A stretch of DNA of 8,847 bases, from the IMG/VR virus record IMGVR_UViG_2724679236_000017; one strand, 5' to 3'. The notes under the pieces are model-generated. The model was not told the DNA's origin, searched no databases, and saw nothing but the letters and a program-made list of their open reading frames with translations. Of the stretch, positions 4,087 to 8,309 are shown one piece after another (the stretch's first letter is position 1; each line of letters begins with the position of its first letter). This DNA comes from a virus (taxonomy: Duplodnaviria; Heunggongvirae; Uroviricota; Caudoviricetes). Both the position numbers and the translations under genes were made by a program.

Positions 4087-4335
4087 CTCTCTCAGTCCAA
4101 CAGTCTTTCGAAGGCCTTGATCAAAGGGCCTTGATAAATTAGCAGTGCGTTGAAAACAGATAGTTATTCCCATCAGTTCCAACGTAATACACATCAAAAA
4201 AATCACCATTCTTTTGCTCTAACGTCAACACCTACTCTTAAAAAAATAATTCTCCAAGAATGAGAAAGTTATTGTGTGTATTAGATAAGATATGAGCTGA
4301 CACATCTATGGCGTGGAGCCAAATTTAATATGACA

Positions 4336-4359
4336 GTCCGCTCTGTGCCAGGAGCGGAC
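4336..4359. repeat. half copy (second hairpin only) of the conserved double-hairpin intergenic element
   Basis: GTCCGCTC-TGTGCCAG-GAGCGGAC is a perfect 8-bp stem with the same GTGCCA loop as the second hairpin of copies B, C and D. The upstream hairpin and linker are absent. Confidence 0.6.
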
Positions 4360-4660
4360 GTTGTAAAGTTTATTTGGAGAATAATGGTTAGAAGAACTAT
4401 GTAGATCATAGCCCTCTAAAGTCAGTAGTCTTACACCATATAAATGGTCATTTAGAGATAGTACACCACCTACAAAAAACGAGATAAAGCGTGCAAGCGG
4501 CATGAAGATACATAACTGCACTTGATGTTAGGATGAATACTGACACTCGCTTTGTAAAGATAAAGATGATCTTGAGGATGATTAGTTTATTAATTATCTC
4601 CAATGTTTGTTATTTTGTGATGATAAAGATTCTCTGGATTAATAGGATGGTAATTCAATT

Positions 4661-4688
4661 AAAAGAGACCTTATAGAAGGCCTCTTTT
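4661..4688 (-). terminator. intrinsic terminator for the 4713..5090 gene (possibly bidirectional)
   Basis: On the minus-strand RNA the stem GAGGCC/GGUCUC (one G/U pair) has loop UUCUAUAA and is followed by UUUUAAUUGAAUU, about 25 nt downstream of the stop at 4713. The plus strand forms the same stem followed by TTTT. Confidence 0.5.
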
Positions 4689-4712
4689 AAGTTATGAGAG
4701 CTGATTTTATAT

Positions 4713-5090
4713 TCAATAGAGTATTCTCATCGAAGAAATAACCTCATAAAATGTAAAGACAGCCAGCAAAAAAATACAGATAAAGATAAGGGAAATAGCA
4801 CACTTAACTAAGGACTGAATCCCCCGAGGTGTTCCCCATGGTTTAGACATTTGGGTTATAACCCAAATAAATAAGGCCATAAAACAGCAAACACCAGCCA
4901 ATCCGAGCAGAGATATTATGACAACTCCAAATAGATTTCCAACATCTAGTTTATCTGTTTTTGCAACCAGGGTTAACAAACCAGCAATAATAGTTGCTAT
5001 CGATATTCCCGCAATGGTTGTGAGATCAGCGATAACAGCCAGTTTTTCTTTAGTATTTCCTTGAGTAAAAACCTCTAAAATTGATTTCAT
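4713..5090 (-). CDS. small integral membrane protein (125 aa, about 3 TM helices)
   Basis: AGGTGG Shine-Dalgarno 9 nt upstream of the ATG on the minus strand. Three long hydrophobic segments. A perfect TATAAT (reverse complement of 5113-5118) lies upstream as a candidate -10. The gene has its own terminator. No recognised family. Confidence 0.65.
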   Translation of the reverse strand: MKSILEVFTQGNTKEKLAVIADLTTIAGISIATIIAGLLTLVAKTDKLDVGNLFGVVIISLLGLAGVCCFMALFIWVITQMSKPWGTPRGIQSLVKCAISLIFICIFLLAVFTFYEVISSMRILY

Positions 5091-5203
5091 GGAAAATAAC
5101 CACCTACTATCGATTATATTCAGGAACTTTTTATCATAACGATATCAGATAGATAAGGATATTGTAATATTTTGGATGATTTAAACTTACTTTTGTAACT
5201 CTA

Positions 5204-5271
5204 ATGTCCACTTTTCGCTCACAGCGGACCTTTAGCTCAGTTACCTCGTCCGCTTTGTGCCAGGAGCGGAC
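5204..5271. repeat. conserved double-hairpin intergenic element, copy B (68 bp)
   Basis: ATGTCCACTTTTCGCTCACAGCGGACCTTTAGCTCAGTTACCTCGTCCGCTTTGTGCCAGGAGCGGAC. About 84 percent identical to copy C by hand count. Two hairpins built on GTCCGCT/AGCGGAC arms. Lies between divergent gene starts. Confidence 0.7.
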
Positions 5272-5532
5272 GCTAACCTGATTGACGGGAAATCATATTA
5301 AGTCGGCATAAAAAATTAGAATATCTTTAGTGACTATTACTAATGTGTGTGTATAACTTATGCCTAATTTATCGCTCCGGCTGAGGGAATCTTGCCTCCG
5401 CTGTCACTTTTAGGTATGTTAACAACTATTTTTACAGTGGTTCCGAGTTATGCTATCTAACAGATTACTTGAACCGAGTCCGTTTATCAGTATGGCGTTT
5501 TATATGCTCAGAGTCCATCCAAGGAGTGACTT

Positions 5533-6289: not shown

Positions 6290-7045
6290 CTATTCCTTGG
6301 CCTCTTTATTCTTCTCGCCATCGCCAATATAAATAAGATAGTCGTTTAAGGATATCCTTCCGGAGGGACCGGTCCATGTTATCAATCCGTTTTCACGAAG
6401 ATTAAATAATGCTTCCATGAACTCATTATCGTTAAAAGAATGATCTTCTGAGAACAGAATGTTCATTTTTCTCAATAGTTCTTCCACTTTAATCTTTTCA
6501 TATCGCCTTATCAGACTTAGTGCTCTACGACGCATTAAGACTGTAGGTACTGCTTGTGAACGAATGGTTTTTTGTATTCCACTATCAAGAACTTTCTTAA
6601 TCTTACTCTCTAATTCTTTGATTTTAGTTTCATTATCTCCATTGGACTTAAGCTTTTCATCAACGATACAAATAATCTCCTGACTAATGCGGTTCTTGAG
6701 TTTGTTTATTTTTTCTTCATTGTTGAGGATCTCATCAGAGCTTCCTGCATGGGGTTTTTTCCATATGTGCTGACGCATATCCGTTACCGTATCTCTCATC
6801 ATAGAGAATGTATCTGAATATAACTTGTCAAATATTTTTTCCAGCCGTTCGACACTTGCCTGGATGTCTTTTGCTGCTTTAGTTGTCTCTTTAGAAGCCT
6901 CATTCGACATTTTATAAAAAACAAAAGAAAGCCAAATAGCCCCAATGGCGAGTACTAATGAGGCTATTGTGGCAATAAAACCTATTATTGTTATTGCTGT
7001 ATCTAATGTACCTGCTGCATCTGTGACTACTGTTTCTGCTGCCAT
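6290..7045 (-). CDS. membrane-anchored protein with N-terminal TM segment and coiled-coil-like region (251 aa)
   Basis: GAGGA Shine-Dalgarno 3-4 nt upstream of the ATG. N-terminal hydrophobic stretch LDTAITIIGFIATIASLVLAIGAIWLSFVFY. A K/E-rich heptad-like middle (KINKLKNRISQEI..., KIKELESKIKKVL). C-terminal ~70 aa of unknown fold. No recognised family. Confidence 0.7.
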   Translation of the reverse strand: MAAETVVTDAAGTLDTAITIIGFIATIASLVLAIGAIWLSFVFYKMSNEASKETTKAAKDIQASVERLEKIFDKLYSDTFSMMRDTVTDMRQHIWKKPHAGSSDEILNNEEKINKLKNRISQEIICIVDEKLKSNGDNETKIKELESKIKKVLDSGIQKTIRSQAVPTVLMRRRALSLIRRYEKIKVEELLRKMNILFSEDHSFNDNEFMEALFNLRENGLITWTGPSGRISLNDYLIYIGDGEKNKEAKE

Positions 7046-7089
7046 ATATCCTCAATATTTAACCATACAGGGTAGCGTGTTTTAACCGC

Positions 7090-7125
7090 GGGGAAGTCGG
7101 GGTGGTGACACCCTGGCCTTACCCC
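7090..7125. other. GC-rich nested stem-loop in the putative 5' leader of the 6290..7045 gene
   Basis: GGGG-aagtcg-[GGGTG-gtga-CACCC]-tggcctta-CCCC: inner 5-bp stem with a 4-nt loop, flanked by a GGGG/CCCC outer stem. It stands out in AT-rich surroundings. A TATGAT -10 candidate (reverse complement of 7145-7150) would place it in the minus-strand leader. Confidence 0.3.
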
Positions 7126-7328
7126 AATTCCAGAGTATTTGTTTATCATACCATTGAAACTATTTAATTTTATCGAAAATTTTGTCAGAGCGTGACTGAA
7201 AAGTCTTCAGCACGTCAAGCAGATCGTCGCCGTTCAATTAGCACTGAACTTTTTCTTAGTGGGGGGCTGTGCAGTTGCGAAGTTATGCCCCAGTTCCTCA
7301 CTACATTCTAATTAAGCCGGCCAACTAA

Positions 7329-7390
7329 ATGTCCGCTCCTCGCTCACAGCGGACCTTCAGTTGTTCGTCCACTCCGTGCCAGGAGCGGAC
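7329..7390. repeat. conserved double-hairpin intergenic element, copy D (62 bp)
   Basis: ATGTCCGCTCCTCGCTCACAGCGGACCTTCAGTTGTTCGTCCACTCCGTGCCAGGAGCGGAC. The 11-bp termini ATGTCCGCTCC and GGAGCGGACAT are exact reverse complements. Lies between divergent gene starts. Confidence 0.7.
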
Positions 7391-7443
7391 ATTGATTATT
7401 CCTCTCTGTAAAAATCTTAATGCTAACTAGTGGGAACTATAAG

Positions 7444-7470
7444 TTGTCAATTGACATAATTGTGTATATT
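7444..7470 (+). promoter_or_regulatory. candidate sigma70 promoter for the GIY-YIG gene
   Basis: TTGTCA (7444-7449), 15-bp spacer, TATATT (7465-7470), with TGTG immediately upstream of the -10. A consensus TTGACA at 7451-7456 is too close to this -10 to pair with it. Predicted start about 7477, which favours the ATG at 7506 over 7476. Confidence 0.35.
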
Positions 7471-7505
7471 TTGCGATGCAAATGTTAAATTTTAGGTGTC
7501 GTTAT

Positions 7506-8309
7506 ATGGATGTTAATGAATTTCCACCGGGAGTAATCGAGCATCTTGGCTGGTATGTCTACCGCCTGATTGACCCGAGAGATGGTAGTACGTTCTACGT
7601 AGGGAAAGGGAAAGGTAATCGTGTCTTTGCCCATATGCGCGGTGAGGTTGCTGCAGTGGATGATGATGAGTTACTGAGTAACAAACTCAAACAACTTCGG
7701 GAGATCAGATTAGCTGGTCTTGAAGTTATCCATGTTATACATCGGCACGGTATAGCTGAAGAAAAGACGGCTTACGAAGTTGAAGCAGCACTCATAGACG
7801 CCTATCCCGGCTTGACTAACATCATGAACGGTGCTGGCAGTAACGAGTTCGGTGCTGCACACATCAAAGAACTAATCGCCACGTACCAACCTGAAACAAT
7901 TACGTTCCAACATAAAACCCTAATGATATCGGTTAACAGGAGCTCAAAGGATATTGACCTCTATGATGCTGTACGTTTTAGCTGGCGTGTCAGCCTTGAA
8001 CGCGCTCGTAAGGCAGAGGTCATACTGGCGACAGTAAGAGGAATTGTGAGGGGCGTATATATCGCAGATGAGTGGCTCAAGTCTACCCGTGAGAATTTCC
8101 CAGAGATCCCCTCATGGGATGCGGATGATGAATTTGAAGCCACTCAAAGTTCCCGCTTTGGGTTCCGGGGTAGGGCTGCACCTCCTGAGATTACACAGCT
8201 TTATTTAGGTAAGAAGCTCCCTGATGAGCTCAGAAAGAAAGGTGCTATGTCTCCTGTGAGATATTCTCCCGGATTTGATTTCGGAATGGAACTAGATTTT
8301 AGATCGTAG
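7506..8309 (+). CDS. GIY-YIG nuclease-domain protein with uncharacterised C-terminal domain
   Basis: The track ORF starts at 7476, but the ATG at 7506 has AGGTG Shine-Dalgarno 7 nt upstream and lies downstream of the predicted transcription start. The N-terminus carries GWYVYRL...[10 protein letters not shown], matching the GIY-X(10-11)-YIG pattern with the following Arg. Downstream Glu (AYEVEAAL) and Asn (GLTN) sit where the catalytic Glu/Asn fall in GIY-YIG folds. The C-terminal ~160 aa are unrecognised. Confidence 0.8.

Follow-up and report, generated by a model that had tools for sequence, protein, structure and literature searches.

The DNA analysed here, called the window throughout, is a stretch of 8,847 nucleotides from IMG/VR virus record IMGVR_UViG_2724679236_000017 (Caudoviricetes). 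It is a fragment of an Escherichia albertii lambdoid prophage and a deletion derivative of it. The window carries a block of four accessory genes, g1 to g4, and a repeat search found a palindromic repeat of 24-28 nt at each gene boundary. An earlier note on this DNA, made from the letters and open reading frames without database searches, had described four orphan genes in alternating orientation, each with its own expression signals, and had taken them for moron-type cargo with a defence flavour. That reading was largely right. Below, the genes are described together with the repeats that bound them, and the way in which such cassettes may be exchanged is discussed.

Genes of the block

The four open reading frames do alternate as described (4713-8309; minus, plus, minus, plus), which for four genes is a chance event of one in eight. 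A PHROGs search gave only families of unknown function, and the view that they are accessory cargo rather than phage core genes was thereby borne out. On the other hand, the remark that none of the four matches a family that can be named did not survive the searches, as g4 is PD-T4-3 by its sequence and g2 belongs to Pfam DUF6650.

Gene g4 (7506-8309, plus strand, 267 aa) is the sole open reading frame between its left site and the module end, and its sequence identifies it as the single-gene GIY-YIG (LEM-3-like) anti-phage nuclease PD-T4-3. Residues 11-265 align to positions 1-254 of the 256 in PADLOC model PDLC04031 with E=4.7e-137, the LEM-3-like GIY-YIG family of Pfam (PF22945) is matched at 7.9e-13, above its cut-off, and the motif GWYVYRL...FYVGKG is readable. 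The start is most likely 7506 and not 7476, because the match to the PADLOC profile starts only at residue 11, the proteins called in databases have 267 aa, and a Shine-Dalgarno sequence (SD) is found only at 7506. PD-T4-3 comes from a functional selection against T4, where a GIY-YIG nuclease was among the new systems (Vassallo et al. 2022, PMC9519451). Like that system, g4 is a single prophage-borne gene with a GIY-YIG domain, and it covers the full profile; it differs in that it comes as a cassette bounded by one of the sites described below, a manner of delivery not mentioned in the available part of that paper.

Gene g1 (4713-5090, minus strand) encodes 125 aa with three hydrophobic, presumably transmembrane (TM), segments; it belongs to phrog_4155 (unknown function) and has no Pfam, NCBIfam or PADLOC family. 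A palindrome with a perfect stem, TTAAAAGAGACCTT/AAGGCCTCTTTTAA (4659-4690), lies 23 nt downstream of its stop codon and is a candidate bidirectional terminator.

Gene g2 (5533-6009, plus strand, TTG start) encodes the DUF6650 protein of 158 aa, predicted to be a soluble helical bundle; the structure model is a four-helix bundle, for which a structure search returned generic helical bundles only. DUF6650 proteins from Vibrio, Shewanella, Aeromonas, Pseudomonas, Achromobacter, Comamonas and enterics are 50-94% identical and almost always 156-158 aa long. This conservation is unusually high for an accessory gene, and suggests frequent horizontal transfer under strong constraint.

Gene g3 (6290-7045, minus strand, 251 aa) is a member of a broad unnamed family of proteins of approximately 210-250 aa; a TM helix at its N-terminus is followed by long coiled-coil-like helices and, at the C-terminus, by a winged helix. 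Its structure model is of low overall confidence (pLDDT 69, pTM 0.33), and in the structure search the winged helix alone found matches (E~0.02), being weakly similar to PadR, MarR and cullin-WHB. Pfam matches to a large-T C-terminus, an MCM4 winged helix and dynein were weak and below the cut-offs, and these assignments were rejected.

Apart from DUF6650, searches of PADLOC, NCBIfam and Pfam with g1-g3 gave nothing. We nevertheless consider these three most likely to be further superinfection-exclusion or defence genes because of where they reside, namely in phage defence hotspots. The suggestion that the block is superinfection-exclusion or abortive-infection cargo is supported for g4 by its identity. 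For g1-g3 an anti-phage role is suggested by their location in the accessory and defence hotspot of P2 described below, and a PADLOC search with these three genes found nothing.

A strong SD precedes every gene, as had been claimed: GGTGG, AAGGAG, GAGGA and AGGTG for g1 to g4. The spacers have the lengths described (626, 442, 280 and 460 nt), but with a GC content of 0.36-0.44 against 0.43 for the whole window, AT-richness is clear for the first two only. Furthermore, sigma-70-like promoters were not enriched (11 found, 11.5 expected in shuffles), and the scan for promoters and terminators gave one terminator-like match. Of the expression signals postulated for each gene, this leaves the SDs. 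Independent transcription of each cassette is plausible.

Sites at the cassette boundaries

The pattern GTCCNNTNNNNGCNNNNAGCGGAC occurs at seven sites in the window, all within 4336-7390, where 0.00 were expected from 200 shuffles. The repeat copies that had been noticed in the spacers are therefore real and non-random, and their importance had been undervalued, since they are the organising feature of the block.

Two types of site are found, A and B. Both are 24-bp dyads with a 9-7-8 layout that can form a stem of 7-8 bp. Site A consists of an arm GTCCGCTyy, a 7-nt core GTGCCAG and an arm GAGCGGAC, and site B of an arm GTCCGCTyy, a core TCGCTCA and an arm CAGCGGAC. As A is approximately 81% complementary to B, the two ends of each module are inversely oriented. 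The layout of the block is A-g1-B/A-g2-B/A-g3-B/A-g4, with A always to the left of the gene and B always to the right, and the junction of neighbouring cassettes is a B site, a linker of 12-18 nt and an A site.

All sites are given on the plus strand. The g1 cassette is bounded by A1 (GTCCGCTCT, GTGCCAG, GAGCGGAC; 4336-4359; 47.7 bits in the matrix described below) and B1 (GTCCACTTT, TCGCTCA, CAGCGGAC; 5206-5229). Following a linker of 18 nt, the g2 cassette extends from A2 (5248-5271) to B2 (6105-6128). The g3 cassette is bounded by A3 (6147-6170), which has the core variant GTGCCAA, and B3 (7331-7354), and after a linker of 12 nt A4 (7367-7390) forms the left boundary of the PD-T4-3 cassette. 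No B site was found to the right of PD-T4-3 in any context examined (window 8310-8372, L001 11088-14650, and the intact prophage locus L094), even at a threshold of 6 bits. The array is open on the PD-T4-3 side, and its right end is undefined. To the left of A1 lies an array leader of approximately 58 nt (4278-4335, plus strand), in which megablast matches to P2 prophages start at 4278 or 4291.

A position-weight matrix (PWM) was built from approximately 100 instances of the sites. It gave no matches in 504,800 shuffled nucleotides, scored 39-51 bits at the sites around g1, g2 and g3, and in approximately 30 real loci returned a strict A..B-A..B grammar in a single orientation. From these loci 57 A..B cassettes were defined, mostly of 0.6-2.4 kb with one open reading frame in either orientation relative to the sites. 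The gaps from B to A were mostly 18 nt, or approximately 660 nt where a recombinase gene fills the gap.

Site cores are almost invariant and the arms variable, and changes in one arm are not compensated in the other. The sites therefore behave as candidate double-stranded protein-binding dyads and not as conserved hairpins; a conserved RNA or DNA hairpin, or a terminator, was rejected on these uncompensated changes and the lack of T-tracts. A CRISPR-like repeat or a genome-wide repeat of the REP (repetitive extragenic palindromic) or ERIC (enterobacterial repetitive intergenic consensus) type was likewise ruled out. An 81-nt junction probe matched in 874 of 5,426 E. coli genomes with a median of one match per positive genome, and only in accessory regions. 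The whole window gave no Rfam match at E<=1.

Mobility of individual cassettes

The block was compared by megablast with 5,426 complete E. coli genomes. None of these has 80% or more of the block, which follows from the window belonging to E. albertii, whereas g1, g2, g3, g4 and the pair g1+g2 were each found separately. The earlier note had proposed comparing related strains for individual swapping of modules, and this is what the comparison revealed.

Several of the separate copies lie in the G-FI hotspot, i.e. between the gpG (tail-fibre assembly) and FI (tail-sheath) genes, which is the classical Z/fun hotspot of P2-like phages. In E. coli KSC207 this hotspot holds g1 alone, in a P2-like prophage of ST131 it holds g1+g2, and in Peduovirus P22H4, phage 9W and E. 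coli 23CRST038 g3 is the sole cargo. Sequence homologous to the array leader of the window follows the gpG stop codon of occupied hotspots, and is also found at the corresponding position in the lambdoid prophage of E24377A. Gene g2 alone was found between insertion sequence (IS) elements in an island. PD-T4-3 was not seen in the gpG-FI locus of P2-like phages; it occurs in the same lambdoid backbone in E24377A and SE11, where three other cassettes, joined by the same B-A junctions, precede it.

Where eight boundaries were compared, identity starts or stops at the site cores. The identity of g1 to its P2 copy stops at the TCGCTCA core of B1, and the hotspots of ST131 (g1+g2) and KSC207 (g1) differ by an exact insertion at TCGCTCA. 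The same unit of B core, linker, A4 and gene stands in E24377A behind a different cassette. From site A a cassette keeps the right arm and from site B the left arm, the other arms coming from the context: the g3-specific right half of A3, GCCAAAAGCGGACATG, accompanies g3 into P2 phages, and the g1-specific left arm of B, GTCCACTTT, accompanies g1. Cassettes move as units among P2-like phages, lambdoid prophages, chromosomal islands and plasmids, with the exchange points in the A and B cores.

Cassettes in P2-like phages, islands and plasmids

We examined 65 P2-like IMG/VR contigs with enough upstream sequence. Cargo bounded by A and B is present in 40 of them, in which B lies at a fixed distance of 216 nt upstream of the start of FI; the remaining 25 are empty or carry a serine invertase. 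Among 38 A..B loci of these contigs there are 29 distinct cargos, including OLD/AriA/GajA-like ATPases and RT-TIR, TIR, Cap15-like, RelA/SpoT and Mrr-type proteins. P2 itself has the same arrangement: fun(Z) is flanked by an A site (34 bits), 61 nt downstream of the gpG stop, and a B site (31 bits), approximately 200 nt before FI, both found with the same PWM.

At empty gpG-FI sites the gpG stop is followed immediately by the operon terminator, and neither A nor B is present (Salmonella phage STYP1, locus L093, 560-730; approximately eight IMG/VR contigs), whereas occupied sites have an additional leader of approximately 55 nt and a trailer of approximately 58 nt outside A and B. In approximately 13 further contigs this position is taken by a serine DNA invertase.

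In other Enterobacterales, the cassettes of islands and plasmids carry SIR2-HerA, DRT1, DUF4238 and Lit-type peptidase U49 genes, as well as GNAT acetyltransferases, LysR regulators, NUDIX and transporter genes. This mixture of defence and accessory cargo indicates a general accessory-gene platform that is enriched in defence. In K-12 MG1655, the cryptic prophage CP4-57 has an A-type site of 36 bits between yfjW and ypjI (locus L104, 22412-22435); being solitary, without a partner B, it does not qualify as an array.

A candidate recombinase

Loci fetched by similarity to the junction pointed to a protein of 200 aa, represented by WP_001305361.1 and annotated as 'site-specific integrase', which was encoded within 2.5 kb of the junction in three of five such loci and in partial form in one more. 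It consists of the PF00589 catalytic domain only, with the Arg, Lys, His-x-x-Arg, His and Tyr (RKHRHY) motifs readable. Matches to NCBIfam models of the Xer, integron-integrase and FimB/E types are weak and far below the cut-offs, and a sequence search of the PDB gave no match.

Additionally, loci were fetched by the recombinase protein itself. In Enterobacterales the gene lies inside the B-A junction. Of 15 such loci, 13 have a site approximately 19 nt past the stop codon and 10 have a B site approximately 63 nt upstream of the start; some copies of the gene are truncated or carry a frameshift. A scan of one genome per species gave more than 547 relatives, 61-97% identical, which extend from Enterobacterales to Pseudomonas, Burkholderiales and Alteromonadales. 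They keep an A-like motif (…GGCCAGAAGCGGCC…) directly after the stop, and several Pseudomonas loci have inverted repeats of 16-25 bp around the gene (GTCCGCTTCTGGCCGGTTAGCGACC in L044 and L059). No conserved neighbour or partner gene was found in 80 loci. The gene is present in 928 of the 5,426 E. coli genomes, 42 times on plasmids, and in one P2-like contig (IMGVR_UViG_3300028958_000056; locus L148, 5686-6252) it lies in the gpG-FI hotspot between A and B, with 92.6% identity over residues 1-189. On the basis of its position, this 200-aa tyrosine recombinase is our candidate for the exchange enzyme. The integrase remnant of the window is unrelated to it in sequence.

A sequence of approximately 195 bp in E. 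coli WCHEC005237 (NZ_CP026580.3, 3701187-3701381) matches only the two ends of the B-recombinase-A unit. It may have lost its interior, as a stage between the full unit and the linkers of 12-18 nt. In several loci of Pseudomonas, Pseudoalteromonas and others (L041, L033, L092, L055, L079) a transposase gene of approximately 478 aa adjoins the small recombinase gene; in L041 (~10621-12134) the transposase DNA begins inside the A-like site right after the recombinase stop. We take the N-terminus of this transposase (MKRFIxGExRxQ) to resemble IS1182-family proteins. Some IS families target attC or pdif sites, and the transposase next to the small recombinase recalls these.

Proposed mechanism and alternative explanations

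We consider it probable that 4278-8372 is a tandem array of four independently acquired, site-bounded cassettes in an accessory slot of the nin region, exchanged by site-specific recombination. A cassette comprises two different 24-bp sites and, between them, a single gene that has a ribosome-binding site of its own and may point either way. Exchange would be conservative site-specific recombination of A with A and B with B, carried out by the 200-aa, catalytic-domain-only tyrosine recombinase. Replacement of a cassette would take two exchanges, and addition of one would proceed through a circular form with a single B-linker-A joint that integrates; inversion or deletion through A and B would be disfavoured because their cores differ. 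Cargo could thus be swapped or inserted without inversion or loss, as in engineered recombinase-mediated cassette exchange. The array in the window encodes no recombinase and would therefore depend on one acting in trans, from a gene of the kind that sits in the B-A linker of islands, plasmids and occasionally P2 phages. Whether this amounts to a widespread platform distinct from integrons, in which a small recombinase acting on two heterospecific 24-bp sites shuttles single-gene defence and accessory cassettes across Proteobacteria, is close to an even question, with the balance slightly on the negative side.

Several observations weigh against site-specific exchange by this enzyme. Neither the window nor the intact prophage relatives encode such a recombinase within the 20 kb examined, the sites around the recombinase gene have degenerate inner arms, and the association between enzyme and sites is one of position and co-distribution. 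The PD-T4-3 cassette has a left A site and no right B site; this, together with the empty P2 sites that have neither A nor B, leaves the first insertion at a locus unexplained. As to a defence role of the cargo, g1-g3 match no PADLOC model and their structure models gave only generic folds. Finally, sharp breakpoints at conserved sites of approximately 24 bp could also arise by short-homology recombination.

The last point leads to the main rival, in which RecA or phage recombinases of the Red/RecET type act across the conserved B-linker-A junctions of approximately 50 nt. On this view the sites are portable patches of homology, and the small recombinase nearby has no part in the exchange or only an occasional one. 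It is favoured by the recombinases typical of lambdoid phages, which act on approximately 40-50 nt of homology, by an identity of 80-100% among the junctions across 56-70 nt in hundreds of genomes, and by the lack of a recombinase gene in the window and its intact relatives; homologous and illegitimate recombination were both weighed as options by the authors of PMC13586616. However, the edges of the P2 hotspot share one 24-bp site, which is little homology for RecA, and still hold 29 cargo variants. Furthermore, the cores are near-invariant while the arms vary, and both the grammar and the recombinase-adjacent motif persist across bacterial orders; conserved cores and a conserved grammar are unlike passive homology patches. 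We therefore regard this rival as unlikely, though it fits the data better than a miniature inverted-repeat transposable element (MITE) or an insulator or terminator function does. In a MITE-like model the B-linker-A unit (approximately 66 bp) would be a non-autonomous derivative of an element made of inverted repeat, recombinase gene and inverted repeat, which inserts into intergenic accessory DNA, so that a 'cassette' is whatever lies between two insertions. The short junctions do share the same ends, with 12-18 nt between them, and the deleted form in WCHEC005237 would suit such a derivation, but the outer arms of the junction move with the adjacent cargo and not with the linker, and P2 hotspots have a lone A to the left and a lone B to the right, the reverse of an inserted B-A unit. 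This makes the model improbable.

The palindromes might instead serve expression, as terminators, insulators or operator-like hairpins that shield the morons, with recombination being incidental. A stem of 7-8 bp is possible at each site, one site is terminator-like by score, and in P2 the sites lie between genes beside strongly transcribed late operons. Against this, most sites lack a following T-tract, the direction of the gene has no bearing on the site type (A left, B right), changes in the arms are uncompensated, Rfam gave no match, and the motif is tied to the recombinase gene across orders. We hold such a role to be very improbable. Hardly any weight is left for the view that the morons form a static block, inherited vertically with the prophage, and that the repeats are due to chance. 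This view would account for the identical block in approximately 20 E. albertii and E. coli contigs, but these were retrieved by the exact g3 protein, a look-up that is biased towards exact matches, and it conflicts with the 0.00 sites expected by chance and with the occurrence of the modules separately in P2 phages, islands and another lambdoid array.

Comparison with known systems

Inverted repeats flanking P2 fun(Z) were reported previously, and site-specific exchange between phage and bacterial genomes was proposed at that time (Nilsson, Karlsson & Haggard-Ljungquist 2004, via PMC8987985). The core idea is consequently around 20 years old. The P2 locus has the same A and B sites, and g1, g2 and g3 are cargo of this locus in other P2-like phages. 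Here, in contrast, four cassettes are stacked in a lambdoid prophage, two site types are distinguished by a 7-nt core, and there is a candidate recombinase; some of these differences may already be found in Nilsson et al. 2004, which is represented here by its citation in PMC8987985. Recent large surveys of P2 and P4 defence hotspots report that defence systems are swapped extremely fast, and one recent hotspot paper calls the exchange mechanism unknown. The available parts of the recent hotspot papers cite the 2004 observation on P2 fun and do not discuss the repeats. The site motif strings occurred in no relevant paper and keyword searches for a description of cassette, recombinase and defence gave nothing, with Nilsson 2004 and Odegrip 2006 lying outside the search. 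As far as we have checked, the tandem arrays in lambdoid prophages, the anatomy of two site types with defined cores, the quantification in P2-like phages and the link to a widespread small recombinase are new.

The system works like integron cassettes and the dif modules of Acinetobacter, yet fails the defining tests of both. With integrons it shares an array form with mostly one gene per cassette, imperfect palindromes composed of two simple sites in inverted orientation, a tyrosine recombinase, and similar cargo (defence systems, GNAT, NUDIX, LysR). However, the 200-aa recombinase scores 15.9 bits against the TIGR02249 cut-off of 265 and is too short for the IntI-specific insertion, and the cores are GTGCCAG and TCGCTCA instead of GTTRRRY/RYYYAAC, with conservation of site sequence, in contrast to attC with its R''/L''-L'/R' boxes, which is conserved in structure. 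Integron cassettes are mostly co-oriented and are read from Pc without promoters of their own, but the genes here point in both directions, each with an SD and after a spacer of 280-626 nt. No attI-Pc platform is present, and the recombinase gene is found inside the junction and not at the head of the array. A classical integron was ruled out by the integrase score, the site cores and the cassette orientation.

The dif modules (pdif, XerC/XerD; PMC6449649, PMC13141974) are likewise accessory modules between inversely oriented tyrosine-recombinase sites of approximately 24-28 bp; their segment types alternate, and they are shuffled between replicons without a mobility gene of their own. They differ in that the sites described here have a 9-7-8 layout with GTCCGCT arms, unrelated to the 11-6-11 of dif, that each junction has two sites instead of one shared site, that a dedicated small recombinase is implicated instead of host XerCD, and that the hosts are phages and islands of Enterobacterales.

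Invertases of the FimB/FimE type and Rci of the R64 shufflon resemble the candidate enzyme in their size of approximately 200 aa, and in having no large N-terminal domain, and they act on segments flanked by short inverted repeats, as is proposed for the candidate; weak NCBIfam matches to PRK09871 and PRK09870 were found. Here the outcome is cassette replacement or insertion, with no evidence for inversion, which between A and B should be blocked as their cores differ. As regards insertion sequences and MITEs, inverted repeats are present, and in the boundary comparisons the arms segregate with the cargo and not with the junction.

The surrounding prophage

Exact copies of g2, g3 and the 201-aa protein described below were found in E. 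albertii, including CP117678.1. The identical four-gene block is present in the nin region of intact prophages in approximately 20 other E. albertii and E. coli contigs, where its neighbours are ORF6N, or small genes downstream of DnaB, on one side and the 213-aa, DUF1367, YbcO, Q and holin genes on the other. Comparison of intact and deleted prophages revealed that the genome of the window has lost everything from the integrase N-terminus through just past PD-T4-3, which includes the whole early region. The deletion junction is at approximately 8372/8373, and the deletion disabled the prophage next to pgsA/uvrC.

To the left of the junction, 8310-8372 (plus strand) is the tail of the PD-T4-3 module, common to E24377A and the intact E. 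albertii prophages and with no B site after it. To the right, 8373-8847 (plus strand) is the 3' part of a lambdoid-type integrase gene (Pfam PF00589, 9.4e-09). The 173-aa open reading frame that had been called an integrase remnant (8326-8847) is correctly named as far as its larger part is concerned, the C-terminal catalytic part of a lambdoid integrase, but it is a chimera whose codons 1 to approximately 15 derive from DNA downstream of PD-T4-3.

On the other side of the array, the lambdoid part of the window includes the DUF1364/YbcO and DUF1367 genes (171-1057, minus strand). It also includes a gene of 225 aa to which no function was assigned. A trio of genes (2351-4086, plus strand), co-oriented and upstream of the array, encodes a 77-aa protein, an ImmA/IrrE peptidase of family M78 and a 201-aa protein with one TM segment, which is C-terminal. 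The peptidase matches the PADLOC capP model (2.4e-25) as well as many RmrA models. Rather than plain phage immunity, the trio resembles a regulatory or defence module controlled by a protease, and it is missing from the otherwise similar prophage of E24377A.

In an intact prophage (L094, reverse complement) a copy of approximately 70 nt of the 3' end of the 201-aa gene, the counterpart of window 4017-4086, lies approximately 300-370 nt past the PD-T4-3 stop. The whole array in intact prophages is thus bracketed by a direct repeat of backbone sequence, which may be a trace of the entry of the array into this phage.

Implications

For the fast swapping of cargo at phage hotspots, the locus provides concrete cis-elements at every cassette boundary and a specific candidate enzyme. 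A practical rule follows, by which anything between an A and a B site is a candidate accessory or defence gene; g1, g2 and g3 thereby become a priority, and the rule revives the 2004 observation on P2 fun. The platform proposed above, if it exists, would explain why cargo at phage hotspots is swapped very fast and without pseudogenes.

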